64,000 nucleotides of DNA from Minisyncoccia bacterium (GTDB lineage: Bacteria > Patescibacteriota > Minisyncoccia > Phycocordibacterales > CALRBL01). Shown here piece by piece: positions 1,613 through 60,336 of this stretch. Every line of letters begins with the position of its first letter. Within the stretch, counting starts at the first letter, position 1. The DNA lies in NCBI GenBank assembly GCA_038230075.1, contig JBBRNV010000001.1:11672-75671 (forward strand), given 5' to 3'. Under the pieces are notes generated by a model. That model did not search any database. It had not been told where the DNA came from and was given only the letters and a program-made list of their open reading frames with translations. A program made the position numbers and the translations under genes.

Positions 1613-2128
1613 ATGCAAAACGGAACTCTCATTAAAGGAATAGCTGTGCTCGTTGTTATTGGAGGAATTGTCGGTTTTCTCGTTTGGCCATCTAAAGATG
1701 TTGTAGTTGATCAAAATATTTCTAATTCAAATGTTGAAGTTACTAAAGAAACTTCAGGAAGTACCACATCTGCTGCTCAAACTGCAACAGACACCACCAT
1801 TGTAACAACTCAACCTTCAGAAAATAATTCTCAGTTCAAAGATGGTTCATATACATCAGAAGGAAATTACACCTCTCCTGCGGGCCCAGAAGCTATTAAA
1901 GTAACACTCACCCTTTCAAATGGAGTTATTACCAATTCAACAGTGGTAAGTGAAGCAACTGCAACCTTTTCAAAGCGTTATCAAGGAATGTTTGTTGATA
2001 ACTATAAACAATATGTTATTGGTAAAAATATTGATTCATTAAAGCTCGATAAGGTTTCAGGATCATCTCTCACACCAAAAGGTTTCAATGATGCAGTTGC
2101 AAAAATCAAAGTTTCTGCGAAAGCATAA
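1613..2128 (+). CDS. membrane-anchored FMN-binding domain protein (candidate ApbE flavinylation substrate)
   Basis: N-terminal TM helix and S/T-rich linker. C-terminal region resembles the FMN_bind domain, including a D-x-x-SG-S/T-x-T-like site (DKVSGSSLT) where ApbE substrates are flavinylated. Lies directly upstream of the ApbE gene. Confidence 0.55.
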   Translation: MQNGTLIKGIAVLVVIGGIVGFLVWPSKDVVVDQNISNSNVEVTKETSGSTTSAAQTATDTTIVTTQPSENNSQFKDGSYTSEGNYTSPAGPEAIKVTLTLSNGVITNSTVVSEATATFSKRYQGMFVDNYKQYVIGKNIDSLKLDKVSGSSLTPKGFNDAVAKIKVSAKA

Positions 2129-2154
2129 ATGTCTCGTTAGTTGACCTTGCTCAT

Positions 2155-3015
2155 ATGAATATTTCTTTTAAAGCCATTGGAACGCATTGGGTTATTGATG
2201 TGTACGATGTTCTTTCTGCTGAAAAAGAAGAAAATCTTACAAAAAAAATCAAAGATCGAATCGAACAATTTGAACAAATGTACTCACGATTTAGAGAAAA
2301 TTCATGGCTACAGATAATTTCAAAAAATCCTAGCACGTATGGCATTCCCTCAGATGGTGAGGTACTAATCTCATTGTATAAAAACATGTACCAATATACC
2401 GCTGGTGCTGTTACTCCTCTTATTGGCCAAGTACTTGTTGATGCTGGGTATGATAAAGAATATTCTTTAATTCAGAAAAAAGAGTTATCATCGCCACCTT
2501 TATGGGAAGATGTTATTGAATTTAATCCACCACACATTACCATCAAAAAAGAGTGCTCACTCGATTTTGGTGCATTTGGAAAAGGATATTGCGTTGACAT
2601 TGTGGATACAGTTTTAAAGTCAGAAGGAGTCAATAGCTTCTGTGTTGATGCAGGGGGAGACATGATTCATAAAAGCACAGAAGCAAAAGCACTTCGTGTT
2701 GGACTCGAAGACCCACTAGACACAAAGAATGTGATCGGACTTATTTCGTTATTAAACAAAAGTATTGCAGGTTCATCTGGAAACAGAAGAGCATGGGGAA
2801 AGTTTAATCATATTATCAATCCAAAAACACTTGAAAGTTCAAAAGATATACAAGCAATTTGGGTGGTGGCAGACTCAACACTTATTGCTGATGCCATGAC
2901 GACTGCATTGTATTTTACATCTCCTGAAATTCTTCTAAAACACTTCTCTTTCGAATATCTTATGTTGTTTAGTGACTACTCAGTTGCTGGAACACTTCTT
3001 ATTGATGCTGAATGA
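2155..3015 (+). CDS. apbE: FAD:protein FMN transferase (ApbE family)
   Basis: 286 aa. GAFGKGYCVD and CVDAGGDM motifs match ApbE GA(I/F)xKGY(A/C)VD and NxGGD signatures. Confidence 0.75.
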   Translation: MNISFKAIGTHWVIDVYDVLSAEKEENLTKKIKDRIEQFEQMYSRFRENSWLQIISKNPSTYGIPSDGEVLISLYKNMYQYTAGAVTPLIGQVLVDAGYDKEYSLIQKKELSSPPLWEDVIEFNPPHITIKKECSLDFGAFGKGYCVDIVDTVLKSEGVNSFCVDAGGDMIHKSTEAKALRVGLEDPLDTKNVIGLISLLNKSIAGSSGNRRAWGKFNHIINPKTLESSKDIQAIWVVADSTLIADAMTTALYFTSPEILLKHFSFEYLMLFSDYSVAGTLLIDAE

Positions 3016-3098
3016 TGTAAGAAGACAATTTCTTGCGATAACCTCTATATAAGGGTAAAATTGATATACGGCGCGAATTCCATTCAAGCTTTACCCCT

Positions 3099-4220
3099 AT
3101 GATGTACTCAAATGTTTTTCCAAAAATTAAAAGTATCATCAGTCATTTCTACACTGAAACATTCTTTCCCCTCAAGACAGAAGTAGATTTGAAATCGTTT
3201 CAAAGTAGATTTAATCTTGTCCTAAAAGAACATCTTGAAAAAAAACTTCAAATATATAGAAAAATAACAAATAATTCTGAAGTATTTGATGTAATGAAGT
3301 ATGCAGTTGAACTGGTCTGTGAAGGTGGAAAGAGAGTTCGCCCTTATATGTTCTATCTTGCGAATTTGTCTGAGGGCGGAACAGACACCGAAGAAACACT
3401 AAAGCTTGCAATCTCACTTGAATTATTTCATGCCTTTGCTTTGATTCATGACGACATTATTGATCGAGGGACAGAACGTCATGGAAAATTAACAACCCAT
3501 GTGTATACAGAAAAGGCAATTTCGGCATTTCCACGAGGTGATAAAAAGCACATAGCAGAAGGAATGACAATTCTTGCGGGTGATCTCATGTTTAGCTGGT
3601 CTCAAGAAATCATTGGAAAAAGTCACACACAAGAATTAAAAGATATTTTTTATACAATGGTAGATGAGGTGGTTGCTGGACAAACCCTTGATGTGACATT
3701 TATGCTTCAATATGAAGTAACTTCTGAGTCTATTGCTAGAAAAAATGAATTAAAAACAGCACTGTATTCATTTGTAAATCCAATGCTTATGGGATCTGTA
3801 CATGCACAATCACATGTACACGATCAATTTTATCGGGAATTTGGTCTCATCATCGGCCAGGCGTTTCAAATTCAGGATGATCTTCTAGATATTACAGGCA
3901 GTTCGAAAAAGTTAGGAAAAAATACTTTTTCCGATATTAAAGATGGTCAACACACATTCTTAAGTCAGTATGTTTTTGAGAGTGCTGATATTCAAGGAAA
4001 AGATTTGCTACGATCGCTTTTTGGAAAAGAACTTGACGATCATGCACGCAGTGCACTTACTCGTTTGTTTACTTCAAGTGGAGCCGCTGCATATGCATCA
4101 AAAAAAGTTAGTACTCTGATTACTGAAGCACGAACATTGATTGATGAAAGTACATTTAAAACAGTTTATAAAAAACGATGGCATGATTTTGTGAATCTAC
4201 TTGAACATCGAAACTCGTAA
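3099..4220 (+). CDS. polyprenyl diphosphate synthase (trans-isoprenyl diphosphate synthase; FPP/GGPP synthase family)
   Basis: First DDxxD motif LIHDDIIDRGTERHGK and second motif FQIQDDLLD. 373 aa. Confidence 0.8.
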   Translation: MMYSNVFPKIKSIISHFYTETFFPLKTEVDLKSFQSRFNLVLKEHLEKKLQIYRKITNNSEVFDVMKYAVELVCEGGKRVRPYMFYLANLSEGGTDTEETLKLAISLELFHAFALIHDDIIDRGTERHGKLTTHVYTEKAISAFPRGDKKHIAEGMTILAGDLMFSWSQEIIGKSHTQELKDIFYTMVDEVVAGQTLDVTFMLQYEVTSESIARKNELKTALYSFVNPMLMGSVHAQSHVHDQFYREFGLIIGQAFQIQDDLLDITGSSKKLGKNTFSDIKDGQHTFLSQYVFESADIQGKDLLRSLFGKELDDHARSALTRLFTSSGAAAYASKKVSTLITEARTLIDESTFKTVYKKRWHDFVNLLEHRNS

Positions 4221-4221
4221 T

Positions 4222-5121
4222 ATGCCATATCCTGAATATTCTTCGGATGTAATGTTTTGCAAAAAGATCCATAAGAAATATGGAAAAAGTTTTTATTTTG
4301 GAACATTTTTATTTGAAAAAAGTGCACGAGAGGCTACATGTATTTTATACGCCTTCTTTAGGTATCCCGATGAATATGTTGATACATATTTTAACGATCA
4401 AAAAGAAATTGCGCGCACTAAACTTCTTGAATGGCAAAATACTTGGAAAAAGGTATTTAACAATGAGGTTGTTGCTATTGAACAAGATCAATTAAAGATT
4501 TTGCGTGCAGCGCGATATGTTTTTAAAACATATCACATTCCATTTGAATACAGTGAAGCATTTATTGGTGCAATGCTTCAAGATACGATTAAACAAACAT
4601 ATGAAACCTACAAAGAATTAGAAGAGTACATGTATGGGTCAGCTGTGGTTGTTGGGTTGATGATGACTCATGTGCTTTGTTCAAAAGATCAGAAGTTTTT
4701 AGAAGATGAGAAATATAGAAATACTATACTTAGTAAGGCGCAATCACTTGGAGAAGGTTTTCAAATGACAAATTTTCTCCGAGATATTTCAGACGATTTA
4801 CAAACAAGAGGAAGAATTTATCTCCCTCAAGAAGATCTTGTTAAGTATGGCGTGACGACGAAGATGTTAACAGAAAAGACTCTTACAACAGAATTTATTT
4901 CTATGATGAAATTTGAGATCAATAGAACAAAAGAATTGTATGTGGTCGGAGATGAAGGAATTCCACTTCTACCAAAGAATGCTCAAAAAGGAATTCGTGT
5001 TGCACGAGTGTTGTATTCAAGTATTCTCAATAAAATCGAAGACACCAAGTACAATATTTTTCGAGAACGAATACATCTTAGTTTTGTACAAAAGTTATTC
5101 GTTGCAATTAAATCTTTATAA
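4222..5121 (+). CDS. squalene/phytoene synthase family protein (CrtB/CrtM/HpnD-like)
   Basis: YCKKIHKKYGKSFYFG and GEGFQMTNFLRDISDDLQTRGRIYLPQEDL match SQS_PSY signatures. The ORF track starts at a TTG at 4201 overlapping the upstream stop. The ATG at 4222 lies immediately after the upstream TAA. Confidence 0.75.
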   Translation: MPYPEYSSDVMFCKKIHKKYGKSFYFGTFLFEKSAREATCILYAFFRYPDEYVDTYFNDQKEIARTKLLEWQNTWKKVFNNEVVAIEQDQLKILRAARYVFKTYHIPFEYSEAFIGAMLQDTIKQTYETYKELEEYMYGSAVVVGLMMTHVLCSKDQKFLEDEKYRNTILSKAQSLGEGFQMTNFLRDISDDLQTRGRIYLPQEDLVKYGVTTKMLTEKTLTTEFISMMKFEINRTKELYVVGDEGIPLLPKNAQKGIRVARVLYSSILNKIEDTKYNIFRERIHLSFVQKLFVAIKSL

Positions 5122-5122
5122 T

Positions 5123-6637
5123 ATGAGTCAAGAACAACAAAAAAAAGTTATCGTTATTGGATCAGGAATCGGCGGTATTGCCACTGCGTGTTTACTCGGA
5201 AAGAAAGGGTATAAAGTGACCATTCTTGAAAAATTGTCAGAGTATGGAGGAAGAGGAAGGGTGTTTAGTGAAAAAGGTTTTACATTCGATATGGGCCCTT
5301 CGTGGTACATGATGGCAGACGTTTTCGAGGAATTTTTTGCAGCACTTGGAGAAAATATTAATGATTACCTTTCACTTCAGAGATTGTCTCCTTCATATCG
5401 TATTTTTCTCAAGAGTGAAATGAAGCATTATGACTTCTACAGTGATATTGAAAAAAATAGGGAAATATTTGAGTCAATTGAACCAGGATCTGGTGATGTT
5501 CTTAAAAAATATTTAGAAGATTGTAAGTATCAATACGACATAGCAAAAAAAGAATTTATTTTTAAAAATTACGATTCGATTTTTGATTTCTTTAATAAAC
5601 GAGTAATGACTGAGGGAAGAAAACTCCCCATTTTCAAAAAAATGAATCAAATTGTGGAAGCGTCATTTAAAAGTGAAATACTCCAAAAAGTCTTGCAATA
5701 TCAAACAGTTCTTTTAGGAACTTCACCTTTTGATGCTCCTGGAATTTACGCTCTTATGAATCATGTTGATTTTAATGGTGGAGTTCATTATCCGAAAGGA
5801 GGAATCACAAAACTCTTTGAAGCATTAATTACTGTGGCTAAAAAGAATGGTGTTTCTTTTAGAAATAACGCTGAAGTTCTTACCATAAATGTTGAGGAAG
5901 AAAATGTAACTGGTGTGACATTAAAAAATGGAGAAGTGCTACGTGCTGATATTGTTGTTTCAAATGCAGATATTGAGCACACTGATCAGAAGTTACTAGA
6001 ACCCGAATATCGACAAAAAACTCCGAAATATTGGGATACTCGAAAAATGGCACCTTCTGCATTCATTATGTATCTAGGGCTAAAAGAAAAAGTTCCATCT
6101 CTTTCACATCACAATTTATTATTTTCAGAAGATTGGAAAAAAGGATTCGATGAAATCTTTAAAGATCCAGTGTACCCAACTGACATTTCACTATATGTCT
6201 GCGCTCCTTCAAAAAGTGATGCTTCTGTTGCACCAGAAGGAAAAGAAAATTTGTTCATTCTTGTTCCGATTGCCGCAGGGCTTCCTGATAATGAAAAAAT
6301 TAGAGCATCATTTGAGGAAAATGTTCTCGACGTCATAGAAAAATATATGGGTGTAAAAAATATGAGAGATTTGATTGAATATAAAAGAGTTTATTCAGTG
6401 AATAACTTTAGAACCGACTATAATGCTTTTAAAGGAACGGCACTTGGCTTGGCACACAATTTTATGCAAACATCTTTTTTTAGACCAAATAACATAAATA
6501 AAAAAGTTAAAAATTTGTATTACGTCGGAGCGGGAACTAATCCTGGAATTGGTATGCCAATTTGTATCGCATCTGCAGAATTGGTATATAAACGAATTAT
6601 GGGTATTACAGATCCTGAGCCTCTTAAAAACGTGTAA
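5123..6637 (+). CDS. phytoene desaturase family FAD oxidoreductase (CrtI/CrtN-like)
   Basis: N-terminal Rossmann VIVIGSGIGGIATACLL. GFTFDMGPSWYMMADVFEEFF and C-terminal NLYYVGAGTNPGIGMP align to CrtI. The upstream in-frame extension to 4913 overlaps the previous gene and is read-through. Confidence 0.8.
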   Translation: MSQEQQKKVIVIGSGIGGIATACLLGKKGYKVTILEKLSEYGGRGRVFSEKGFTFDMGPSWYMMADVFEEFFAALGENINDYLSLQRLSPSYRIFLKSEMKHYDFYSDIEKNREIFESIEPGSGDVLKKYLEDCKYQYDIAKKEFIFKNYDSIFDFFNKRVMTEGRKLPIFKKMNQIVEASFKSEILQKVLQYQTVLLGTSPFDAPGIYALMNHVDFNGGVHYPKGGITKLFEALITVAKKNGVSFRNNAEVLTINVEEENVTGVTLKNGEVLRADIVVSNADIEHTDQKLLEPEYRQKTPKYWDTRKMAPSAFIMYLGLKEKVPSLSHHNLLFSEDWKKGFDEIFKDPVYPTDISLYVCAPSKSDASVAPEGKENLFILVPIAAGLPDNEKIRASFEENVLDVIEKYMGVKNMRDLIEYKRVYSVNNFRTDYNAFKGTALGLAHNFMQTSFFRPNNINKKVKNLYYVGAGTNPGIGMPICIASAELVYKRIMGITDPEPLKNV

Positions 6638-7486
6638 TTATTTTGCTAAAAGGACAAGAAAGAAAAGAATCATTCCAACTAATGTATTTATTTTTGGAAA
6701 GTATGTATAGAGAGTAAATAATTCATCACTAGTTTTTGAACGGAGAGAAAGAATCATAAGCGATGTATAGATAATAAATCCTCCGATTCCGAACAAGGAA
6801 AAGTAACGATATGCAACAAAGCTTGAAATTGTATAAAGAAAAAGACAAAGAACTAGCGTTTTTTGCGCACCTAAATATGTAGCAATTGTGTGTAGGTGTG
6901 CATCGGTATCAGCTTTAATGTCGGGAACCGCTGAATATGCATGCATGGCAATTGCCCATGCCATTCCTCCAACTAAAGGAATTAAAGGAAATCCGATTCC
7001 ACCTGCGACATAATAACCAACTACAGCCGTTGCAATGTAATGACCTGCGCTAAAAAGACTATCAAGAAAAGGTTTTGCTTTTGCACGAATCGGCTTCGAA
7101 GAGTAGAACCCTGCAAAGAATAGAAAAGCGATAAGTGAAAGAAGTGTTGCTCTTGAAATGGTCACAAAAAAGAGAACGATAATAAAAACAAGACTGCTTA
7201 GAATGATCCATCTCCACAGAGAAGTGTGTTCTTCTCGTGCGACAAGTGATTCGTAAGCTATTTTCTTTGGATTTAATTTGTCAGTTTCATAATCAAATAT
7301 ATCGTTAATTCCATAAATAAAGATATTGGCAGGAAAGGTAAAGTAAACAGAGAAGATAATAAATGGAAGTGAGTGCCAAGAATAGTCTCCTGCATGAGCA
7401 ACTGCAGCAAATCCTAGTATAAATGAGCCTAATTCGTATATCCAAAACCGCGGGCGGCTAATACTGAGAGCTCTTTTGAGATTCAT
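6638..7486 (-). CDS. UbiA-family membrane prenyltransferase
   Basis: 282 aa polytopic membrane protein with NDIFDYETD (NDxxDxxxD) motif. Convergent with, and abutting, the CrtI-like gene. Confidence 0.7.
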   Translation of the reverse strand: MNLKRALSISRPRFWIYELGSFILGFAAVAHAGDYSWHSLPFIIFSVYFTFPANIFIYGINDIFDYETDKLNPKKIAYESLVAREEHTSLWRWIILSSLVFIIVLFFVTISRATLLSLIAFLFFAGFYSSKPIRAKAKPFLDSLFSAGHYIATAVVGYYVAGGIGFPLIPLVGGMAWAIAMHAYSAVPDIKADTDAHLHTIATYLGAQKTLVLCLFLYTISSFVAYRYFSLFGIGGFIIYTSLMILSLRSKTSDELFTLYTYFPKINTLVGMILFFLVLLAK

Positions 7487-17151: not shown

Positions 17152-17488
17152 TAAGTTTATTGATAACAGACCATGGGGTAAAGAAGAACACTTTATCCAA
17201 AATGAAAAAGCAACGGTAAAATTGCTCTATGTAAAAGCGCGAGAAAAATTAAGTCTACAATTTCATCATAAAAGAAGTGAGTTTTGGAAAATCATCGCAG
17301 GTTCTCCTATTATTGTTATTGAAGATCAAGAAATCACGGCTCAAGTTGGTGATGAATTTGATATTCCTGTTGGAGCAAAACATAGAATTATGGGAGGGGA
17401 AGATGAAGCCATTATTTTAGAAATTGCAGAAGGAGATTTTGACGAGAACGACATTACTCGGTTAGATGATGCCTACGGGCGTACGTAG
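17144..17488 (+). CDS. mannose-6-phosphate isomerase, type II cupin domain
   Basis: RPWGKEE..LSLQFHHKRSEFWKIIAGSP..VGDEFDIPVGAKHRI matches the type-II PMI cupin signature (LSLQxHxHRxEHW). Confidence 0.7.
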   Translation: MINKFIDNRPWGKEEHFIQNEKATVKLLYVKAREKLSLQFHHKRSEFWKIIAGSPIIVIEDQEITAQVGDEFDIPVGAKHRIMGGEDEAIILEIAEGDFDENDITRLDDAYGRT

Positions 17489-19340
17489 TATGTTATTTTC
17501 AAAGACGAGTAAAAAAATGATTATCGAACCAATTGGTGTCATTCGAAACAATGATATCGACATGTTTCTGTGTAAATCTATTTCGTCTAAAACATCTCTT
17601 GTCTACTATAAAACAACAGATGGAAAGAATTTTTCAAAAATAAAAAAATCGATAAGTATTGTATGGCAGCGTAAAGAAATTGTTGTTGACGATATTGAGG
17701 ATGCTCGATTTTCAGAAGTGGGTGATTATCATTTGTTAACATTTAAGATTGGAAAAAAAGTCTACTTTGCAACATCAAAAGATTATTTTGAGTTTAAGGT
17801 TATTTCGCAATCATCGGAATTTAAAGAAGTTCCTTTGGTAATTTCTCATTTTTCATATAAAGGTGGATGTGTTGCTCTTTATAGAGACCCACAATTTGGA
17901 ATTGCTGTGTCGCACGATCTAAAAACGTGGAGATTTTCAAATATTATGGGAGCTGAGAAGGCGGTAGATGCACTTCATCATAAGGAAAATAGAATTATTG
18001 GAGCAATGCGTTCTGATCGAGGCATTTTAATTTTATACGATAAGTTATACGAAAGAACGGCAGATGCTCAGTACAATCCGAAAAAAGAGCATGTACTTGA
18101 AATTCAAGGAGTTATGCTTTCAGAATTGCAGCCATATCGAGCGTTGTGGGCCTCAGATTCGCCGCTATATGTAGAAGCGTCTAAAATTCCTTTCCAAGGT
18201 CAACCACTTGCGGCATTTCTTGATAGAACTTCTATCTCTGTATATTGGAAATCAAACGAAGCAACATTTTTTAGTTTAATTCTTCCAAAAATATTCGGCG
18301 AACCAACTGATGTAGCAAATGTAAAACTTGATAAGCATGTACATAATCCTGTAATTAGGCCAAATCCTGACAATTATTGGGAATCAGTTCAAACATTCAA
18401 CCCCGCTGCACTTTATTTAGATGGGAAAGTGCACCTACTCTATCGAGCCATGGGATCTGCGGGTATTTCTTATTTGGGATATGCAGCGAGTGATGACGGA
18501 TACACATTCGATGAACGTTCAAAAGAGCCTGCGTATTGGCCAAGAAAAGAATTTGAAGGAACAACAACGCCAGTTTCTTCATATACCGACGAATTTATGT
18601 CAGGAGGTGGATGGGGAGGTTGTGAAGATCCTCGACTCGCAGTGATTGACGACAAAGTATATTTAACATATGTCGCATACGATGGATGGAGAGCTCCACG
18701 TGTGGCACTTTCAACAATCACCACAAAAAACTTTCTTAAAAAGAAATGGGACAAATGGACTGAACCAATTCTTCTTTCAAAACCACATCAAACAAACAAA
18801 AACTCCTGTTTTCTTCCTGCAAAAATTAACGATAAATTTGTTATTTTTCACCGAGTCTTTCCTAATATTCTAATTGATTATGTTGAAGATTTAGATTTCG
18901 GAGAACATGCAAAATGGCTTGAAGGACATCACAAAATTGAACCACGTGGCACCCATTGGGATAGTCGAAAATTAGGAGTTGGAGCAACACCAATCAAGAC
19001 TGATATGGGTTGGCTTTTGATTTATCAAGCGGTTGATGACCGACATGACAGTCAATATAAAATTGGAGCGATGATTCTCGATCTTCATCATCCAGAAAAA
19101 GTGTTGTATCGAACAAACAAGCCAATTTTGATTCCAGATATGGAATATGAAAATAGAGGACACAAATCAGGTGTCGCATATCCATGTGGAGCAATAATTA
19201 AAGACGATACACTTTTTGTGTATTACGGAGGAGCTGACAGCGTGGTGTGTGTTGCATCACTTCCGCTTAAAAAGTTTTTATCGGGCATGAAGCATCACAA
19301 AGATATAAAACTTTCAGTTAAAAAGGCATCTATTTCTTAA
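17466..19340 (+). CDS. GH130-family glycoside phosphorylase (DUF377) with N-terminal extra domain
   Basis: C-terminal ~330 aa contain GCEDPRL, YLTYVAYDG, GWLLIYQAVDD and YYGGADSV GH130 signatures. N-terminal ~280 aa unassigned. Alternative start ATG at 17490, immediately after the upstream stop. Confidence 0.75.
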   Translation: MMPTGVRSMLFSKTSKKMIIEPIGVIRNNDIDMFLCKSISSKTSLVYYKTTDGKNFSKIKKSISIVWQRKEIVVDDIEDARFSEVGDYHLLTFKIGKKVYFATSKDYFEFKVISQSSEFKEVPLVISHFSYKGGCVALYRDPQFGIAVSHDLKTWRFSNIMGAEKAVDALHHKENRIIGAMRSDRGILILYDKLYERTADAQYNPKKEHVLEIQGVMLSELQPYRALWASDSPLYVEASKIPFQGQPLAAFLDRTSISVYWKSNEATFFSLILPKIFGEPTDVANVKLDKHVHNPVIRPNPDNYWESVQTFNPAALYLDGKVHLLYRAMGSAGISYLGYAASDDGYTFDERSKEPAYWPRKEFEGTTTPVSSYTDEFMSGGGWGGCEDPRLAVIDDKVYLTYVAYDGWRAPRVALSTITTKNFLKKKWDKWTEPILLSKPHQTNKNSCFLPAKINDKFVIFHRVFPNILIDYVEDLDFGEHAKWLEGHHKIEPRGTHWDSRKLGVGATPIKTDMGWLLIYQAVDDRHDSQYKIGAMILDLHHPEKVLYRTNKPILIPDMEYENRGHKSGVAYPCGAIIKDDTLFVYYGGADSVVCVASLPLKKFLSGMKHHKDIKLSVKKASIS

Positions 19341-19349
19341 TTTTTATAT

Positions 19350-21341
19350 ATGTATAACGTAAAACGAAATCAACATAATCCTATTTTGAACCCTGAGCGC
19401 ATGCGTGCTTGGGAAGGTGATGCAACATTTAACTGGTCAGGTATAAAAGAAGGAAACACTGTTCATTTGGTATATAGAGCTTTAGAGAAACATAAACGAA
19501 TTGAAGACAAAGAGTTAGAGTTTTCAACAATTGGATACTGTAAGAGTACTGACAAGCTTTCAACGTTGAAAGATCGAAGACAACTTATTACACCTGAATA
19601 TAATTGGGAAAAGTTTGGATGTGAAGATCCCCGAATTCATAAAATTGGAGACACCTACTACATTTTTTATACAGCACTTGGAACGTTTCCATTTGGTCCT
19701 GATGGTATTAAGGTAGCATTAGCAAAAACAAAAAATCTGAAAGATATTACAGAAAAGCATCTTCTGACTCCGTTTAATGCGAAGGCAATGACACTATTTC
19801 CTGAAAAGATAAAAGGGAAGATTGCGGCATTTGTGAGTGTTGATACCGACAGACCTGACCGTGGGGTAAAACTTGGTTACATCACATTTAATTCAGAAGC
19901 AGATATTCTTTCTCATGAATATTGGAATTCGTGGTATCAAAATATTCAAGAAAATCAATTACATCTCGCACGAAATTCAGGAGAGCAAATTGAAGTAAGT
20001 GCTCCGCCAATTAAAACAAAATATGGATGGTTACTTATTTATTCACATATTCAAAATTACTTCAGTAATGATAGGGTTTTTGGAGTTGAGGCGGTATTAC
20101 TTGATCTTAAAGACCCACGAAAGGTTATTGGAAGAACTCAATTTCCTTTTTTGGTACCAGAAGAAGTGTATGAAGAATTTGGACAAGTTCCCGCTATTGT
20201 TTTTCCTAGTGGTGCGTACCTTGATAAGGAAAAGGGTAAAGATGTTGTTGTTTTGCTCTACGGCGCAACAGATACTACAGGCTGCGCAGCCACCATTCCA
20301 CTTGATGAGTTGTTAGTGTCTCTGAAAAATGGAACGGAGCAATTTATTCGTTCACCTAAAAATCCCCTCATTATTCCAAACGAACTTCACTTATGGGAAG
20401 ACGTTGCTGTTTTTAATCCAGCTGCAGTTCGAATTGATGGAACAACTCACATTTTTTATAGAGCCATGGGCAAAGAGAATACTTCAGTCATAGGCCTTGC
20501 CCTTTCAAAAGACGGGGTAAAGATTGATCGAAGATTTAAAGATCCTATATATATACCTCGCGCTGATTTTGAAAAAAAGGCAAAAGAAGGAAATTCAGGA
20601 TGCGAAGATCCTCGTGCAACAATTATTGGTGATCGACTATTCTTGGTATACACAGCATATGATGGCATACGACCTCCAGGAGTTGCCATGACATCAGTTT
20701 CAATTAAAAAATATACCGAAGCTGTTTCTCATATGGTCAAAGATATTAAGGGAACAGTAGAAGTGAGAATTCCTTGGGATGAGCCTGTTTTTGTATCACT
20801 GCCAAATCTTGATGATAAAGATGCACTTCTTTTTGGTGAGAAGTTCAATAAAGCATGGTGGATGTTTCATCGAGTAAATCATAATGTGTGTTTTGATATT
20901 CTTTTTGGATTGCAACCAGAAAAATTAAAATCACCTGATGATTTACGGAAACAAAATGTTAAAATGCATAATGTAACTCCACTGTTCGGTCCACGACGTG
21001 GTATGTGGGATAGTAAAAAAGTTGGTGTTAATTGTCCACCTGTTAAAACAAAGGCCGGATATCTTCTTCTCTATCATGGAATTGGAGAAGATCACATATA
21101 TAGAGTAGGGGCAGTACTTCTCGATTTAAATGATCCATTCTCTGTTATAGGACGAAGTTCGCAGCCTATTTTCGAACCTAATGCAGAATATGAAAAGAAA
21201 GGAATAATTCCAAATGTAGTGTTTCCTTGTGGATTAGTTGTTGAAAAAGATTTACTCCATATTTATTACGGAGGAGCAGACACCGTGGTTGGTATGGCGG
21301 GAATGAGTTTAAAAAAGCTCATTGAGCAGCTTCTTGCATAA
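19350..21341 (+). CDS. tandem double-GH130 glycoside phosphorylase
   Basis: Two complete GH130 repeats in one 663-aa protein, each with GCEDPR(I/A), Y-x-Y-TA, GWLLIY/GYLLLYHG and YYG(G)ADT motifs. Confidence 0.8.
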   Translation: MYNVKRNQHNPILNPERMRAWEGDATFNWSGIKEGNTVHLVYRALEKHKRIEDKELEFSTIGYCKSTDKLSTLKDRRQLITPEYNWEKFGCEDPRIHKIGDTYYIFYTALGTFPFGPDGIKVALAKTKNLKDITEKHLLTPFNAKAMTLFPEKIKGKIAAFVSVDTDRPDRGVKLGYITFNSEADILSHEYWNSWYQNIQENQLHLARNSGEQIEVSAPPIKTKYGWLLIYSHIQNYFSNDRVFGVEAVLLDLKDPRKVIGRTQFPFLVPEEVYEEFGQVPAIVFPSGAYLDKEKGKDVVVLLYGATDTTGCAATIPLDELLVSLKNGTEQFIRSPKNPLIIPNELHLWEDVAVFNPAAVRIDGTTHIFYRAMGKENTSVIGLALSKDGVKIDRRFKDPIYIPRADFEKKAKEGNSGCEDPRATIIGDRLFLVYTAYDGIRPPGVAMTSVSIKKYTEAVSHMVKDIKGTVEVRIPWDEPVFVSLPNLDDKDALLFGEKFNKAWWMFHRVNHNVCFDILFGLQPEKLKSPDDLRKQNVKMHNVTPLFGPRRGMWDSKKVGVNCPPVKTKAGYLLLYHGIGEDHIYRVGAVLLDLNDPFSVIGRSSQPIFEPNAEYEKKGIIPNVVFPCGLVVEKDLLHIYYGGADTVVGMAGMSLKKLIEQLLA

Positions 21342-21367: not shown

Positions 21368-22003
21368 ATGAAACAACAAAAAATTATCGTTTTAATTTTG
21401 TTAGTTCTTGTTATTATTTTGGTTGTCTTTGTTGTGAGGAAAGGAACTACACCAAATACTGATATACAAAACAATGTTCCAACAACTGCAACATCAACAA
21501 CTCCTGTGAATGTTTCAATAGCTGAAGTAAAAAAAGCACTACTATCTGCAACTGTGACTATTCCGGACGAAGGGACAAAAGCTCAATTGGTAAATGGTGA
21601 AGTTGATTGGCAAGCAACAGACGAAGTTCATGGTTCAATTGGGCTCATTCCAGATGTTCTCGCTATTCATGGAACAGATGTGCTTGCAGCATTCGGTGTT
21701 TCTTCAGGAGGAACAGGAGAGTTTTCTTACGTTTTTCTTTTTTCATATAAAAACGGTAAACTTACGCACACTTCAAGTTATTTCTTAGGAGATCGAATTC
21801 TTGTTAAAAAAATAAATACTGACACATTTGAAGCAAAAGCAAGTGAGGGTGAATATATTGCAAGCATTTCGATTGTTGATAGAGGAGAAAATGAACCGAT
21901 GGCCGCCGAACCAACAATTGCTAAAACTATAAACATTGCAGTTAAAAATGGAGTTTTTAATGAACAGTCGGTAAAAATAACAAGTCCTATCTTAGAACAA
22001 TAA
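21368..22003 (+). CDS. membrane-anchored hypothetical protein
   Basis: N-terminal TM (IIVLILLVLVIILVVFVV) followed by a T-rich linker and a beta-rich domain. Confidence 0.4.
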   Translation: MKQQKIIVLILLVLVIILVVFVVRKGTTPNTDIQNNVPTTATSTTPVNVSIAEVKKALLSATVTIPDEGTKAQLVNGEVDWQATDEVHGSIGLIPDVLAIHGTDVLAAFGVSSGGTGEFSYVFLFSYKNGKLTHTSSYFLGDRILVKKINTDTFEAKASEGEYIASISIVDRGENEPMAAEPTIAKTINIAVKNGVFNEQSVKITSPILEQ

Positions 22004-22009
22004 ATTTGT

Positions 22010-23170
22010 ATGCTTCAGAAATATTCGACTTCATCACATGGAACCAGTGAGACACAAGATGCTTTAAGATTTAAAGCAACACACGATGCCGATACTGCAA
22101 AAAGAAAGCTTGCAGATCAAAAGCGTATCCAAATAATGAGTAAGAAAAGCTTCTTATCTTCTACAATTTCTGAATTACAGAGAAAACAGGCAGATGTAAG
22201 AAAGATTGAACAAGATGCTCGAGCACTTGAGCAGCATTCTCAAGAATCTGAAAGAGAAATCAACCTTCTTAAGAATAACTTAACAGTTGCTGAAGCTGAG
22301 TTGCAAAATATAGAAAGAAAAGTCCAAGATGTTGAAAGAGAAAAGGGTACAACTGAGAGTCGAATATCTTTGTTAAAAGAAGAATTACATAAAAAAGAAT
22401 CACATTTTTTAACAGACTTAAAATTAAAGCAAACAAAAAAGTCGCACGTCACAGAAATTGAAAATGAATTACAACGAGAAAAGACTGAAATAGAAAAGAC
22501 AAAAAATGAAGTAAGGTCTTTACATAATGAAGTTGCAATAAATGAACATTCTGTTAGTACGTTTGAAAAAGAGATTACAAGCTTACTAACTACTGTTCAA
22601 TCAAAAGATAGAGAAGTCTTGAATGTTAAAAGACAAATCGAAGAGCTACAATCTAAACTGAGAGACTTGGTAACTAGTCTACAAATATCGAAAGATGAAG
22701 TGTTAAAAAAGCAAAATCAAGTTGCCGAACATAAGAGAATGACCGAATCTAAAATGACAAAACTTGGAGCACTAGAGACTGCAGTCAAAACTAAAGCTTC
22801 TCATGTGCAAACCAGATTGTCAGATAAGACCCGTGCTCTTGAAGAATCGAAAAGTGTTGAAATGGAAAGTGGGCAACTAGATCACGACAGCTCAAGTATT
22901 AAACGTGAAGAAAAGCTAAAAGAAACCATTCTTCACAGTGAAGATCATCAACTTCAAGAAGTTGAGAAAAAGAAGCAGGCGTTTGAAAATGATATTCGAG
23001 TTATAAAAAATAATCTTTCAAAAAAAGAAAGTCAGATTTCTCAAGATAAGAAACTCGTAGAAACAAAGAAGGCGCAAAAAGTCGCAGTAGAGCAAGAAGT
23101 AAAAAATCTTGAAATGAATAGAAAGAATTATGAAATTGAAATTCGTCGGCTAGAACAAGAAATTATGTAA
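22010..23170 (+). CDS. long coiled-coil protein (E/K/Q-rich)
   Basis: 386 aa almost entirely heptad-like E/K/Q/L-rich sequence. No TM segment. Confidence 0.5.
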   Translation: MLQKYSTSSHGTSETQDALRFKATHDADTAKRKLADQKRIQIMSKKSFLSSTISELQRKQADVRKIEQDARALEQHSQESEREINLLKNNLTVAEAELQNIERKVQDVEREKGTTESRISLLKEELHKKESHFLTDLKLKQTKKSHVTEIENELQREKTEIEKTKNEVRSLHNEVAINEHSVSTFEKEITSLLTTVQSKDREVLNVKRQIEELQSKLRDLVTSLQISKDEVLKKQNQVAEHKRMTESKMTKLGALETAVKTKASHVQTRLSDKTRALEESKSVEMESGQLDHDSSSIKREEKLKETILHSEDHQLQEVEKKKQAFENDIRVIKNNLSKKESQISQDKKLVETKKAQKVAVEQEVKNLEMNRKNYEIEIRRLEQEIM

Positions 23171-23171
23171 T

Positions 23172-24041
23172 ATGAAATTCTCAAGCCATAAAATTTATCA
23201 CCATTATGGAAAAAGTCTGTACGCAGCTAGTTTGTTTTTTCCAAAGAATGTTAGAGTTGCATGTCATGCCCTCTATTCCTTTATAAAAATAGCTGATCAT
23301 GCCATTGCTCCGTTTCAAAATGATTTGCAAAAAGCCTCTGAAGTCTTAGATTTGTGGAAAATTGAATGGCAAAAAGCTTTTGACTCTGGAATGGCAAAAG
23401 ATAAACAGTTAAATAAAATCGCGGTCGTCTTTCATCAGTACGAAATTCCATATAATGAAACGGTTACTTTTTTAGAATCACTTTTAGCCGATATTTCTAC
23501 ATCTGAATATAAGAATTATCAAGATCTCGAAATGTATATGATGAGTTCGTCTTCAATTATTTGCATCATGATGGCTCGTTTAATAGGTATTAATAGTGGA
23601 AATAGATATCCTAAAGATGAGATTACATGGCAACCCCTTCTTAAAGCAGCTCAAATACTTGGAATAACTTTTCACATGACTAGTTTCTTACGTGATATTA
23701 AAGAAGATGTGTGTATTCGAAATAAAATATATCTTCCGCAAACAGAATTAGAAACATATGGAGTAACTAAAGAAATGTTGATTGTGGGAAAAGTTACCCC
23801 AGAATTTACCGATCTTATGAAATTTCAAATTGAAAGAATAAGATTATTTTATGCAGAATCTGAGAAGAGTTTAGTACTGGTTCATCCAAGCTGCCAAAGA
23901 GCTTTGAAAATTATTATGAGAGTGTATGAAGATGTTATTAATAAAATTGAGAAAAGTAATTACGATGTTTTCTCGAAAAAGCCAAAAACTAGAATTTGGG
24001 AAAAAATGATGCTAGCTTTCAAACTTGCTCGTCCGCATTAA
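23172..24041 (+). CDS. second squalene/phytoene synthase family paralog
   Basis: YHHYGKSLYAASLFFPKNVR and LGITFHMTSFLRDIKEDVCIRNKIYLPQTEL parallel the motifs of the 4222..5121 gene. Starts 1 nt after the coiled-coil gene stop. Confidence 0.7.
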   Translation: MKFSSHKIYHHYGKSLYAASLFFPKNVRVACHALYSFIKIADHAIAPFQNDLQKASEVLDLWKIEWQKAFDSGMAKDKQLNKIAVVFHQYEIPYNETVTFLESLLADISTSEYKNYQDLEMYMMSSSSIICIMMARLIGINSGNRYPKDEITWQPLLKAAQILGITFHMTSFLRDIKEDVCIRNKIYLPQTELETYGVTKEMLIVGKVTPEFTDLMKFQIERIRLFYAESEKSLVLVHPSCQRALKIIMRVYEDVINKIEKSNYDVFSKKPKTRIWEKMMLAFKLARPH

Positions 24042-55665: not shown

Positions 55666-56754
55666 ATGACCAACAAATCAAAGGTGATCTTAGGGATTAT
55701 TGCAGCCATTATTATCATAGGAGGTATTTGGATTGTTAATGTAAATCGTAATAATGAGCCAAAAAATTTGACCTTTGGTTTGATCTCTAATCTCACTGGA
55801 GATTACTCTGCAGTAGGAGAATCATTTGCAAAAGGTGCAGACTTAGCTCAGTCTGAATGGAATACAGCACATCCAAACCAACAAATTCAAATGATAAAGG
55901 AAGATGATGGCTTTGATGCAAAGAAAGGTCTTTCTGCTTATAAAAAACTTACAAGCATTGATCATATTGATGCTTTAATCAATACAACCACAATTACTAT
56001 TGATGCACTATATGATGATGTATCAAAATCTGGCATACCAGTAGCACTTGGATTCGAGCAAGGAATCGAAGCGAGAGACGATAATGTAGTCCAGTTATGG
56101 CCAGGAAGTGTGCCTGCAGAAGTAAAGCTTGGAGAAGCAATCAAAGAAAAAGGATTTAAGAATATTGTATTATTCGTCGATAACGGCTCCGCCGCTTTTC
56201 AGCGATTTGCAGATGGTTTTAAGAAAGGATATGGATTACCAGTGCAAGAAATAAAAATAGCTGCTGATGGAAGTGATGTGCGTACAAGCGCTCTCAAGGC
56301 AAGCACACTCAAGCCCGACGCAGTTGTATTTATTATCAAACCCACTTCAGGAGCACTTTTGGTTAAAGAATTGAAATCAATTAGTAAAGATAATTATCAA
56401 TTCGTGTTTGATGCCAATATTCAGACAGGTTTTACTGACTACACAAAAATTCTTGGTGATACTAATGTTTTGAATGGTAGTATTATTTATACTGTACCGA
56501 GCGTCTATCGAAAAGACTTTACAGATAATTTCAAGAACAAATTCGGCACGGAGCCAACTATTGGATCAGAGACCGGTTATAACGCATTTAAACTTCTTGC
56601 TCAAAGCTATGATGAAAATAAAGAAAAATGGGTTAAAAATATGCAGGAAGCCAGCTTTGATGGTGCAGACGGAAAGATTGTATTCGATGAGAATGGTATA
56701 AGAATTCCTGAACTTAAAATTGGTACGATTGAGAATGGAAAGCTCCCAAACTAA
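55666..56754 (+). CDS. ABC transporter substrate-binding protein, Liv/branched-chain amino acid type
   Basis: N-terminal signal/TM anchor and type I periplasmic-binding fold. Followed, after the island, by a livH-like permease fragment. Confidence 0.7.
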   Translation: MTNKSKVILGIIAAIIIIGGIWIVNVNRNNEPKNLTFGLISNLTGDYSAVGESFAKGADLAQSEWNTAHPNQQIQMIKEDDGFDAKKGLSAYKKLTSIDHIDALINTTTITIDALYDDVSKSGIPVALGFEQGIEARDDNVVQLWPGSVPAEVKLGEAIKEKGFKNIVLFVDNGSAAFQRFADGFKKGYGLPVQEIKIAADGSDVRTSALKASTLKPDAVVFIIKPTSGALLVKELKSISKDNYQFVFDANIQTGFTDYTKILGDTNVLNGSIIYTVPSVYRKDFTDNFKNKFGTEPTIGSETGYNAFKLLAQSYDENKEKWVKNMQEASFDGADGKIVFDENGIRIPELKIGTIENGKLPN

Positions 56755-56776
56755 TCTGAAGTAAAAATAATTAATA

Positions 56777-56812
56777 AAGCCACCGAAAATCTTTCGACTT
56801 CGGTGGCTTTTG
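56777..56812 (+). terminator. rho-independent terminator of the SBP gene
   Basis: AAGCCACCGAA-aatctttcgac-TTCGGTGGCTTTTGG. Confidence 0.55.
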
Positions 56813-56833
56813 GTTAAGGGTTAACGTTTCGGG

Positions 56834-57649
56834 TTAGTCCGCAATACGCTTGAGCGCATCGACCCAATCCTTGCCCTCCTCGCTGATCCGCGCATGGAGC
56901 ATTCGCACCTTCGCGCCCTCGATCGAAATCGGGAACCGCGAGTAGTGGTCGAATGCCGCCGAGAACGGATCATCGTGGTGGCTGAGATCAGTAACGACGG
57001 CGACTTGCTTCGCGCCCTGACGAGCCGCCTCAATCATGAGGAGGATGCCATAGGGCACCAGCTCGCCGAGTTTAAACTTGTCCCCCATCGTCTGCGAACT
57101 CATCGGGAGATGGAGGTCCGTGAGAACCACATCGAACTTCTCCTTGCCGAGAAGCTCCATCGCCTCCTGATAGCCGGTTGCCGTGGTGAGAAAGTGACCA
57201 GCCAAGCCTTTCTTGGCGCTCGCGATATGCTTCGCAGCGTCATCGATGACGAGGATGCGGAGCGCATCAGCCTTGATCGGCACTTGTTCTTCCACAGGGG
57301 ACTCAGAGATTTCTGCAATCGGCGTGAGCTTCTTGCTGATCTCAGAGATCGTGGTCAGAAGATTGTGAAGTAGGTCTGCACCGTGCACGACTGTCACATT
57401 TTCAGGAAGATTGGTCGGCTTAGTGTGGTAACCGCCGCCTCCAACACCCCAAATGCAGAGATAGGACTTCTTTTTATCGAAGTCTTTCTCGATTTTGCGA
57501 ACGCTGTCGAAGATGATGAGATCAGCTTCGCTGGCGACGTCGATGAACTTTACGGGCTCACCGAGGATTTGCTTAATGGTTTTGCCTAGGATTTTTGCTT
57601 CCATGGCGATGTGGACCCGGATGGGTTGGATAGTGGTAGCGGTATTCAT
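56834..57649 (-). CDS. atypical receiver (REC, CheY-like) domain protein with unknown N-terminal domain
   Basis: C-terminal half has LRILVIDD ... KFDVVLTDLHLP ... VAVVTDLSHHDD, matching REC beta1 DD, beta3 phospho-acceptor D and beta4 T positions. Paralogous to 59677..60198. GC-rich codons. Confidence 0.6.
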   Translation of the reverse strand: MNTATTIQPIRVHIAMEAKILGKTIKQILGEPVKFIDVASEADLIIFDSVRKIEKDFDKKKSYLCIWGVGGGGYHTKPTNLPENVTVVHGADLLHNLLTTISEISKKLTPIAEISESPVEEQVPIKADALRILVIDDAAKHIASAKKGLAGHFLTTATGYQEAMELLGKEKFDVVLTDLHLPMSSQTMGDKFKLGELVPYGILLMIEAARQGAKQVAVVTDLSHHDDPFSAAFDHYSRFPISIEGAKVRMLHARISEEGKDWVDALKRIAD

Positions 57650-57737
57650 GAGATATGGCCTTTCTTTGTAGGTTGGATTTGAACGTTAAGTTGGAAAAGG
57701 GCTGGATTGCCTCTAATAACATAGTAACACAACTGTA

Positions 57738-57766
57738 TTGACAAGTCAAATTCGATGTGATAAGAT
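57738..57766 (+). promoter_or_regulatory. candidate promoter TTGACA-N17-TAAGAT with TTGAC-aa-GTCAA inverted repeat over the -35
   Basis: Identical hexamers and spacing to the promoter candidate at 59520..59548. Sits in the divergent AT-rich gap. Confidence 0.35.
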
Positions 57767-57831
57767 TTCGACCAAAGCACTTTACAAGTTGGTCATAGCT
57801 AAAAGTCCTTATTTTTTAAGGATTCCTAACT

Positions 57832-58302
57832 ATGACCAACCAAACAAACATCCTACGCACGTCTTTCGTGCAAGTGTGCAGCTTGCTCTGCATCGCCCTC
57901 GCTCTCTTCCTTACCGGCTGCGCTAAGAAAAAGGTCGAGGAGAAGGTCGTTACTCGGGGCTTCATGTATATGGAGTATCCCAAAGCGATTATTCTTCAAA
58001 TCGACAAGGAAGGCGTCGTCACCACTGGCGAATGGGAGAGTACCCCAGGCATTCCTTGGTCTTGGTGGAAGGATTCGGGTAAGAACGTGGGGAGCGAACT
58101 CACTGCCTATCCCGGCAATAAGTTCGTCCTTGAAGGACCGGCACAAGTGGGCGACCATTTTCGCTACCGCCTCTATTACAAAGAGATTCTCCTCGAAACG
58201 GGTGAGATGAAAAAGGTTTTGGAAAAGGTGACGGTCGAGAGCGACAAAATGGCGGATTATCAAAAGCAGATGGCTGCGACTGAAAGTCCGAAAACACAAT
58301 GA
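57832..58302 (+). CDS. lipoprotein (lipobox LFLTGC)
   Basis: Signal peptide with L-T-G-C lipobox and a beta-rich mature domain. GC-rich codons. Own hairpin terminator at about 58340-58385. Confidence 0.6.
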   Translation: MTNQTNILRTSFVQVCSLLCIALALFLTGCAKKKVEEKVVTRGFMYMEYPKAIILQIDKEGVVTTGEWESTPGIPWSWWKDSGKNVGSELTAYPGNKFVLEGPAQVGDHFRYRLYYKEILLETGEMKKVLEKVTVESDKMADYQKQMAATESPKTQ

Positions 58303-58448
58303 TGGTATACCCATCAGGAGAGCATCCTCAGGTTCGATCCCTGAAAGCATCACAAGCACTGTCCTTCGGGCGGTGCTTTACTTTTTGTATAAAATATGTT
58401 TAAATAATAAAAAATTTTGGTACATTCACAAACTGGCTTTAATCAGGT

Positions 58449-59432: not shown

Positions 59433-59476
59433 GAAAAAGCGAATGAAGCTGAGCAAGGTTCAATCCCAAGCTCACG

Positions 59477-59502
59477 CCCACAAGAAATTGTGGGTTTTTT
59501 TA
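59477..59502 (+). terminator. rho-independent terminator
   Basis: CCCACAA-gaaa-TTGTGGG followed by T8. Confidence 0.55.
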
Positions 59503-59519
59503 TTATCCAGACGAGTAAC

Positions 59520-59548
59520 TTGACAATATATATTAAGTATGATAAGAT
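59520..59548 (+). promoter_or_regulatory. candidate promoter TTGACA-N17-TAAGAT
   Basis: Same -35/-10/spacing and shared TGATAAGAT as the 57738 candidate. Confidence 0.35.
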
Positions 59549-59676
59549 AATAAAGTAAGTTCTTTGAAAGGTGTCATCCTGTTGAGTTTGGAAGAAAGGA
59601 CATAATTGACTTGCTAGCAAAATGCTAAGCGAATTATGTACTTTCTCACCACACTCAACTCAAAGGAAAAAACACC

Positions 59677-60198: not shown

Positions 60199-60258
60199 TA
60201 GTGGTGCACCCACTCGGTGAAGTAACCGACGAGTTCAATCCTCGTAAAACTTTCAAAC

Positions 60259-60296
60259 AACACTGCAAGATTCGTTCTGCGGTGTTTACTTTTTAT
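60259..60296 (+). terminator. rho-independent terminator
   Basis: AACACTGCA-agattcgttc-TGCGGTGTT followed by TACTTTTTAT. Confidence 0.5.
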
Positions 60297-60336
60297 AAAA
60301 CGTGGCTGTTTAAGAAAAAAATGCTAAAATAATAAT

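Follow-up and report, generated by a model that had tools for sequence, protein, structure and literature searches.

Gene content and family assignment of the locus

The 64-kb stretch of DNA analysed here (the window) carries at positions 3099-7486 four adjacent genes of isoprenoid metabolism, which we examined as a candidate cassette for carotenoid synthesis. Family assignments were made with Pfam and NCBIfam models and their curated cut-offs, and some reference-family assignments are based on NCBIfam thresholds rather than on full phylogenies. The first gene, on the plus strand at 3099-4220 (the gene caller places its start at 3102), encodes a polyprenyl diphosphate synthase (PF00348, polyprenyl_synt, 152.6 bits). 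It is followed on the same strand by a gene for a CrtB-like enzyme of the squalene/phytoene synthase (SQS/PSY) family at 4222-5121 (PF00494, SQS_PSY, 201.3 bits) and by a gene for a CrtI-family desaturase at 5123-6637 (PF01593, Amino_oxidase, 98.3 bits; TIGR02734, crtI_fam, 493.3 bits). A UbiA prenyltransferase of the Lye/LyeJ type is encoded on the minus strand at 6638-7486 (PF01040, UbiA, 77.8 bits), and a second SQS/PSY paralogue lies at a distance, on the plus strand at 23172-24041 (PF00494, 148.2 bits). The initial annotation of this DNA, which had proposed a carotenoid cluster with a distant synthase paralogue, was correct about the presence and position of all five genes, each of which has a strong family match, and the family models are consistent with a carotenoid cluster made up of the prenyl diphosphate synthase, the SQS/PSY enzyme, the CrtI-family desaturase and the Lye-type UbiA protein.

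The genes of the cassette are tightly packed. As read from the sequence, the stop codon of the prenyl diphosphate synthase gene (4218-4220) is separated by a single nucleotide (nt) from the ATG of the SQS/PSY gene (4222), and the same holds for the stop codon of the SQS/PSY gene (5119-5121) and the ATG of the desaturase gene (5123). The TAA stop codon of the desaturase gene (6635-6637) directly abuts the stop codon of the UbiA gene (6638-6640, TTA on the plus strand), so that these two genes converge with a spacer of 0 nt. The tight packing and the convergent, abutting UbiA gene described in the initial annotation were thus confirmed, whereas its figure of 4 nt for one of the junctions was wrong, both co-directional spacers being 1 nt. 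Identical cassette proteins are encoded in an independent Logan assembly of run SRR19962015, which argues that the cassette genes are not an assembly artefact.

Only one transfer RNA gene and no ribosomal RNA gene were found in the window, and the affinities of the host were examined with the UvrB protein encoded there. Among the best 120 UvrB matches listed, those named by organism are 72-76% identical to the window protein and the best unnamed one is 79% identical; the named sources are all Paceibacterota, Parcubacteria, Taylorbacteria, Patescibacteria group or metagenome-assembled genomes (MAGs) of an unclassified 'bacterium'. The nearest orthologues of the cassette likewise come from Paceibacteria MAGs, and the earlier suspicion of a Patescibacteria-like host is borne out by both lines of evidence. 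Since the G+C content of the cassette (0.335-0.359) corresponds to the window background (approximately 0.36) and the UvrB affinities are Paceibacterial, we conclude that the cassette is native to a Paceibacteria-type Patescibacterium.

The UbiA protein scores 223.8 bits against NCBIfam model NF009516 (PRK12875), above the cut-off of 205 bits, and is below the cut-off on PRK13595 (136.9 bits) and PRK13105 (131.9 bits, cut-off 217). For calibration we used haloarchaeal UbiA homologues located by tblastn on megaplasmids, in particular the locus of Halocatena salina (L006), in which a gene annotated as 'prenyltransferase' is flanked by crtI and cruF, and a phytoene synthase gene follows shortly downstream. 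Because this haloarchaeal protein scores 426.3 bits on PRK12875, the model can be regarded as the family of a haloarchaeal lye gene. The UbiA homologue of Arthrobacter falls in PRK13105 (469 bits) and not in PRK12875. The window protein is 33.7% identical to Halocatena Lye over 95% of its length, its aspartate-rich motifs N61-D62-xx-D65-xxx-D69 and D189-xxx-D193 are invariant among 26 homologues and Halocatena Lye, and some of its close homologues bear the Joint Genome Institute (JGI) name lycopene elongase/hydratase. Judged by the curated threshold, the protein belongs with haloarchaeal Lye and not with the actinobacterial or quinone-type enzymes. Quinone-type enzymes were considered and rejected, as the models for MqnP, 4-hydroxybenzoate UbiA and MenA gave just 21-43 bits. 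The proposal that the UbiA protein could resemble lycopene elongases therefore agrees with the family scores, and a quinone-type reading is not supported.

The desaturase belongs to the CrtI phytoene desaturase family, its TIGR02734 score lying well above the cut-off of 238.1 bits, and it carries the N-terminal GxGxxG motif for binding of flavin adenine dinucleotide (VIVIGSGIGG). Its best model is NF058655, named 'bifunctional phytoene desaturase/3,4-desaturase CrtID', with 598.2 bits and an alignment spanning positions 1-477 of the 478 in the model; the CrtI of the Halocatena cluster reaches 749.5 bits on it and the CrtI of Arthrobacter 453.5 bits. CrtD models give 240-272 bits and the HpnE model 44.9 bits (cut-off 283.05). 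The protein is 41% identical to the CrtI of the Halocatena cluster, the CrtI-family structures 4rep and 4dgk are its best matches in the PDB, and its gene is the sole CrtI-family gene in the 64-kb window. In Haloarcula japonica (Ha. japonica), knockout and complementation have shown both CrtI and CrtD activities for the enzymes C0507 and D1086, and it has been suggested that bacterioruberin producers with a single CrtI possess bifunctional enzymes (PMC11946383). The name of the NF058655 model fits these dual-activity enzymes.

The polyprenyl diphosphate synthase has two aspartate-rich motifs, DDIID at residue 117 and DDLLD at residue 259 (numbered from the start at 3102). The initial annotation had pointed to the residues four and five positions before the first of these as determinants of chain length, and on examination they conform to the pattern for geranylgeranyl diphosphate (GGPP): the context reads LFHAFALIH-DDIID, in which Phe occupies -5 and Ala -4 and the first motif is free of insertions. 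According to the Ohnuma/Wang chain-length model, an insertion-free first motif preceded by an aromatic residue at -5 and a small one at -4 is reportedly typical of archaeal type-I GGPP synthases. The F-A-L-I-H-DDxxD context without insertion is kept in most of 48 cassette orthologues, as is the Phe at -5. Short-chain synthases are also the best NCBIfam matches of the protein (NF041003, 117.6 bits, cut-off 500; CrtE NF045685, 86 bits, cut-off 460; IdsA, 136 bits, cut-off 468). The most likely product predicted from these features is short-chain, namely C20 GGPP, which would correspond to the role of CrtE.

In the cassette CrtB both catalytic motifs are intact (DEYVD and DISDD), and they align to D48/D52 and D172/D176 of CrtM from Staphylococcus aureus. 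The protein is 34% identical to the CrtB of the Halocatena salina cluster, and its best PDB match is 5iys, an entry named phytoene synthase (E = 1.5e-29, 107 bits), compared to 65 bits for CrtM. Among NCBIfam models it scores 160 bits on cyanobacterial CrtB (cut-off 550) and 150.4 bits on HpnD. The genuine CrtB of the Halocatena cluster also fails all CrtB equivalog models and has HpnD as its best match. This indicates that the models are too narrow to decide membership, and that the HpnD score of the cassette CrtB should not be interpreted as evidence that it is HpnD.

Conservation and predicted pathway

In order to determine how widely the cassette occurs, we scanned one genome per species with two UbiA peptide patterns only, so that the resulting counts are lower bounds. 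At least 450 genomes encode a relative of the window UbiA, the best of them reaching 56% identity. The 80 best UbiA-bearing loci, which come almost entirely from Patescibacteria MAGs with a few from Armatimonadota and others, were used for the analysis of gene order; 68 of them have enough sequence to determine the orientation of CrtI and UbiA. The cassette recurs in most of the 80 sampled genomes. The CrtI and UbiA genes are convergent in 63 of 68 loci, which span many Patescibacterial lineages, and the two stop codons overlap or abut in 35 of these 63 convergent loci, with -4 nt as the commonest value. The full order, in which the prenyl diphosphate synthase (IPPS), CrtB and CrtI genes face UbiA, is present in 43 of 57 loci. 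Neighbors within 4 kb were clustered all-against-all, and no additional family occurs in more than 13 of the 80 loci, which indicates that the cassette is a self-contained four-gene unit.

Two variations on this arrangement were observed. A hydrophobic open reading frame (ORF) of about 120-175 codons without a Pfam match lies between UbiA and CrtI, directly downstream of UbiA, in approximately 10 of the 80 loci (L012, L022, L029, L036, L037, L038, L040, L042, L051 and L052; for example positions 10929-11336 of L022); it is absent from the window and may encode an accessory membrane protein of the pathway. At two further loci (L066, 5064-10855, and L086, 3019-8163) the cassette reads through only if UGA is a sense codon (genetic code table 25 or 4), which indicates that the cassette also occurs in recoded lineages. 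One of these two is a 1.1-Mb chromosome labelled Candidatus Peribacteria, and the order in L066 is co-directional (IPPS ... CrtI-CrtB-UbiA).

The haloarchaeal clusters used for calibration also contain cruF. We built a hidden Markov model (HMM) of CruF from haloarchaeal, Patescibacterial and Armatimonadota sequences and ran it on the 80 loci and on all window ORFs of at least 50 amino acids. No CruF (TIGR03460/NF041333) was matched among these window ORFs, and BLASTP with Halocatena CruF likewise found nothing in the 64 kb. Among the related loci CruF adjoins UbiA in only 6 of 80, and these are among the loci most distant from the window UbiA (L075, L078, L079, L080, L084 and L087, comprising loci labelled Uhrbacteria and Saccharimonas, Abditibacteriaceae, Armatimonas and a MAG labelled Pyrinomonadaceae). 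Pfam annotations of the called genes include no PF04240, cyclase, rhodopsin or retinal gene, although no search targeted at C50 cyclases of the CrtYe/Yf type was made.

Taken together, we consider it likely that the four genes at 3099-7486 make up a cassette that is complete in itself, is native to a Paceibacteria-type Patescibacterium and serves to produce an acyclic C45/C50 carotenoid of the bacterioruberin type. The family membership of the four proteins, the state of their catalytic motifs and the conserved synteny are observed directly, and from them we infer the substrates, the products, the bifunctionality of the desaturase and a role in the membrane. In the proposed pathway the trans-prenyl diphosphate synthase would make GGPP (C20), as the chain-length rule suggests, and CrtB would couple two GGPP molecules head-to-head to phytoene. 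The single CrtI-family flavoenzyme would then convert phytoene to lycopene and would later introduce the C-3,4 double bonds as well, in the manner of the bifunctional haloarchaeal CrtI/CrtD. The membrane-bound UbiA protein of the Lye/LyeJ type is predicted to attach a C5 unit from dimethylallyl diphosphate (DMAPP) at C-2 (and C-2') and to hydrate the 1,2 double bond, giving isopentenyldehydrorhodopin (C45) and then bisanhydrobacterioruberin (C50). Given that no CruF is encoded in the 64 kb, the end product is predicted to resemble bisanhydrobacterioruberin and not bacterioruberin, unless cruF is located elsewhere in the genome.

Several observations weigh against this interpretation. The desaturase is just under the curated CrtID cut-off (598.2 versus 640 bits). 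The prenyl diphosphate synthase and CrtB are below every NCBIfam equivalog cut-off, and for this reason the GGPP assignment of the former is one that we infer, from a chain-length rule that was derived from other lineages. The UbiA protein is only about 34% identical to haloarchaeal Lye, and it is equally about 34% identical to the Arthrobacter homologue, over less length. Elongation at one end (C45) and at both ends (C50) look the same in sequence. For CruF and for the supply of isopentenyl diphosphate (IPP) and DMAPP, by the methylerythritol phosphate (MEP) or the mevalonate route, the evidence extends no further than the 64-kb window.

The similarity to the Arthrobacter protein raises the question of whether the UbiA enzyme is rather an elongase of the actinobacterial CrtEb type, which would lead to a flavuxanthin-like C50 or a C45 carotenoid and not to one of the bisanhydrobacterioruberin type, hydroxylated C5 units being added without 1,2-hydration or the enzyme acting at one end only. 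The matches to the actinobacterial-type models PRK13105 and PRK13595, the identity to the Arthrobacter homologue and the lack of CruF in the window are in line with this possibility. Against this, PRK12875 is the only one of these models whose cut-off is passed, the model nearest to the desaturase is that of the haloarchaeal CrtI/CrtD, and no cyclase is annotated by Pfam in the gene tables, with the limit on targeted C50-cyclase searches given above. We therefore regard a CrtEb-like activity as unlikely.

It is less probable still that the cassette ends at lycopene or another C40 carotenoid and that the UbiA protein prenylates a quinone precursor or a lipid carrier, its adjacency to the crt genes being without functional meaning. 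Several UbiA homologues do carry the generic JGI name 4-hydroxybenzoate polyprenyltransferase, but the quinone-type models score far below PRK12875, the convergent pairing with CrtI is kept in nearly all of the loci in which it could be assessed, and no quinone biosynthesis genes are present in the Pfam annotation of the window. A C30 pathway, in which a CrtM-like dehydrosqualene synthase and a CrtN-like desaturase would act on farnesyl diphosphate (FPP), seems to us very improbable. The cassette synthase does align to the S. aureus CrtM structures (E of about 1e-17), and the NCBIfam results listed no CrtN-specific model, so that the desaturase was scored without a comparison to CrtN; however, the prenyl diphosphate synthase has the GGPP-type motif pattern, the desaturase scores highly on the C40/C50 CrtID model and the best PDB match of the synthase is the phytoene synthase entry and not CrtM. 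Moreover, the known elongases of the Lye type all act on C40 lycopene (PMC11946383).

The second SQS/PSY paralogue and the wider window

The presence of two SQS/PSY genes had led to the proposal that the window could encode either C30 and C40 branches or a squalene route. The second synthase (23172-24041) shares 32% identity with the cassette CrtB. Only 9 relatives were retrieved with a word-indexed search, and among 1.84 billion representatives searched exhaustively with HMMER none exceeds 37% identity, so that the protein is a singleton. The nearest of its relatives (P0123) proved to be a normal cassette CrtB, from a locus with the order IPPS-SQS_PSY-amine oxidase-x-UbiA. The phylogeny, which was reconstructed by neighbour-joining and answers the earlier call to place the synthases by tree, locates the second synthase inside the Patescibacterial CrtB radiation and apart from the HpnC-like sequences. 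At 0.39 its terminal branch is about double the median (0.195), and by eye it is the longest of the tree as drawn.

Residue conservation was compared across about 140 homologues, using 30 positions conserved in at least 85% of them and the numbering of S. aureus CrtM. At 10 of these 30 positions the second synthase departs from the conserved residue, compared to 3 for the cassette CrtB and a median of 1. Among the substitutions are R45K, D52A (which removes the second Asp from the first DxxxD motif), A134S, G138C, Q165H, N168S and R181K; in the numbering of the protein itself, R45, D52, Q165, N168 and R181 correspond to K39, A46, H168, S171 and K185. In CrtM, D52 and N168 are essential residues that bind Mg. 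The residues D48, Y129, R171, D172 and D176 are kept. The HpnC structure 4hd1 keeps the first DxxxD motif, which indicates that loss of this motif in the second synthase is not an HpnC trait.

The most likely explanation of these features, as far as residues and branch lengths can indicate, is that the second synthase arose by duplication of CrtB within this lineage, has evolved fast and is catalytically impaired or has a new function, rather than belonging to a second pathway branch, and its part in the pathway is doubtful. The idea of two functional C30 and C40 branches is thus not supported, since the second synthase appears as a degenerate duplicate within the Patescibacterial CrtB radiation. 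One could also suppose that it is a fully functional isozyme of phytoene synthase, for example one that is differently regulated. The ORF is intact and full-length and matches the Pfam model from position 3 to position 262 of 263, the five residues listed above are retained, and the 1-nt spacing to the upstream gene suggests that it is expressed. Considering the number of near-invariant positions that have changed, R45, D52, Q165, N168 and R181 among them, the long terminal branch and the lack of any close relative, we find a functional isozyme rather improbable. Two genes without a Pfam match lie directly upstream (21368-23170) and encode a membrane-anchored protein of 211 amino acids and a highly charged coiled-coil protein of 386 amino acids; the second synthase begins 1 nt after the latter, and the two genes may form an operon with it.

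A precedent is YisP of Bacillus subtilis (PDB entry 3we9), which is among the PDB matches of the second synthase and which reportedly acts as a phosphatase on farnesyl diphosphate and not as a head-to-head synthase. The likeness consists in an SQS/PSY fold that is kept while a catalytic metal-binding motif is lost. The two differ in the motif affected, and the alignment is partial (E = 4.5e-05) and indicates no specific sequence relationship.

The three-step HpnC/HpnD/HpnE-like squalene route is effectively refuted and was rejected on NCBIfam scores and the calibration with Halocatena CrtB: two SQS/PSY paralogues and one flavin enzyme are indeed present, and HpnD is the best NCBIfam match of the second paralogue (131.7 bits) and the second-best of the first, but all Hpn cut-offs are missed by the cassette and second synthases (HpnD TIGR03465, 150.4 and 131.7 versus 278.6 bits; HpnC TIGR03464, 122.2 and 104.3 versus 250.45 bits) and by the desaturase (HpnE TIGR03467, 44.9 versus 283.05 bits), an HpnD best match is not diagnostic because a genuine bacterioruberin-cluster CrtB has it too, and the second paralogue is 16 kb away, inside the Patescibacterial CrtB clade and without the first DxxxD motif that 4hd1 keeps.

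Other features were noted around the cassette and elsewhere in the window. A promoter-like site (TTGCGA, a 17-nt spacer and TAAAAT, with 9/12 consensus matches) lies on the plus strand at 3033..3061, inside the 83-nt gap 5' of the first cassette gene; it is weak evidence for a promoter, as such sites were no more numerous in a scan of the region than expected from shuffled sequence. Directly upstream of the cassette, at 1613-3015, are a gene with an FMN_bind domain (a weak precomputed Pfam match) and a gene for an ApbE flavin transferase. ApbE occurs within 10 kb in only 3 of 80 related loci and is not a conserved part of the cassette, and a kinase-like neighbor of 189 amino acids is not conserved across related loci either. 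A TspO/MBR gene is located about 2.8-3.2 kb upstream of window position 1 (L001, 20275-20673); in Rhodobacter, tspO (crtK) is a member of the carotenoid cluster.

Two tandem genes of the GH130 (mannoside phosphorylase) family lie at 17466-21341 beside genes resembling those for phosphomannomutase and mannose-6-phosphate isomerase, and are unrelated to the cassette. A stretch of about 3.6 kb at 56700-60340 has a G+C content of 0.42-0.59 compared to the background of 0.36. It is flanked by a gene for a LivK-like binding protein (55666-56754) and by a truncated BPD_transp_2 permease ORF (60337-60900). Its ORFs are intact and include two that resemble response regulator receivers (56834-57649 on the minus strand and 59677-60198 on the plus strand), a lipoprotein-like ORF of 156 amino acids and an ORF of 327 amino acids without a Pfam match. 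No Rfam, plasmid or tandem-repeat match was found in it (56.7-60.3 kb), and both of its edges coincide with breaks in the Logan assemblies of run SRR19962015. Either the stretch was acquired as an island or it results from an assembly join.

Biological meaning and comparison with known systems

Patescibacteria (Candidate Phyla Radiation) have very reduced biosynthesis and presumably obtain their lipids from hosts. If the proposed pathway is correct, its C45/C50 carotenoid, which would span the membrane, would count among the small number of lipid-like molecules that they build themselves. We tentatively suggest, as a possibility that we hold to be distinctly less likely than the assignment of the cassette itself, that Paceibacteria, as presumed scavengers of membrane lipids, have retained a minimal CruF-free cassette to make a dihydroxy C50 carotenoid resembling bisanhydrobacterioruberin, or a C45 carotenoid, as a membrane-spanning stiffener or antioxidant, and that in this genome the degenerate CrtB duplicate has taken on a role other than synthesis, for example in the binding or hydrolysis of prenyl diphosphates or in regulation.

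The closest known arrangements are found in haloarchaea and Actinobacteria, represented in our comparison by the Halocatena salina plasmid locus (L006) and by a locus of Arthrobacter sp. StoSoilB13 (L007). The haloarchaeal cluster, crtI/crtD-lyeJ-cruF (c0507-c0506-c0505 in Ha. japonica), comprises the same enzyme families, with Lye in PRK12875 and CrtB nearby; for Ha. japonica the operon order has been given as crtI/D-lyeJ-cruF (PMC11946383). Identities to the Halocatena proteins are 34% for UbiA, 41% for CrtI and 34% for CrtB. The haloarchaeal genes are co-directional (crtI-lye-cruF), whereas in the window crtE-crtB-crtI face lye with abutting stop codons, CruF is lacking, and the GGPP synthase and CrtB belong to one compact unit. 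In addition, the window desaturase is below the CrtID cut-off, and the host is an ultra-small, non-halophilic bacterium. The C50 clusters of Actinobacteria (Arthrobacter, Corynebacterium, CrtEb type) contain the same four families in the co-linear order IPPS-CrtB-CrtI-UbiA, but their genes are co-directional and their UbiA proteins fall in PRK13105, the model that the window protein fails.

A study of deep Lake Baikal (Haro-Moreno et al. 2023, PMC9948471) has reported genes of the bacterioruberin pathway in Patescibacteria: lyeJ, crtD and cruF were detected, lyeJ and crtD by means of HMMs, and cruF was not clustered with the other two. Our literature searches found no other treatment of Patescibacterial bacterioruberin genes. 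The Baikal report concerns the same phylum and the same inferred pathway as the window, but does not include the four-gene crtE-crtB-crtI/lye cassette, its convergent layout or its breadth, the UbiA gene being carried by at least 450 genomes in our survey. The initial annotation had considered pigment or squalene synthesis notable in a reduced genome of this kind; a cassette is indeed present, but it is less notable than supposed, because it is widespread in Patescibacteria and bacterioruberin genes were already reported in 2023. What our analysis adds is modest: it defines the cassette, shows how widely it occurs and that CruF is usually absent, and describes a degenerate CrtB paralogue that is specific to this genome; in other respects the window is a typical carrier of the cassette.

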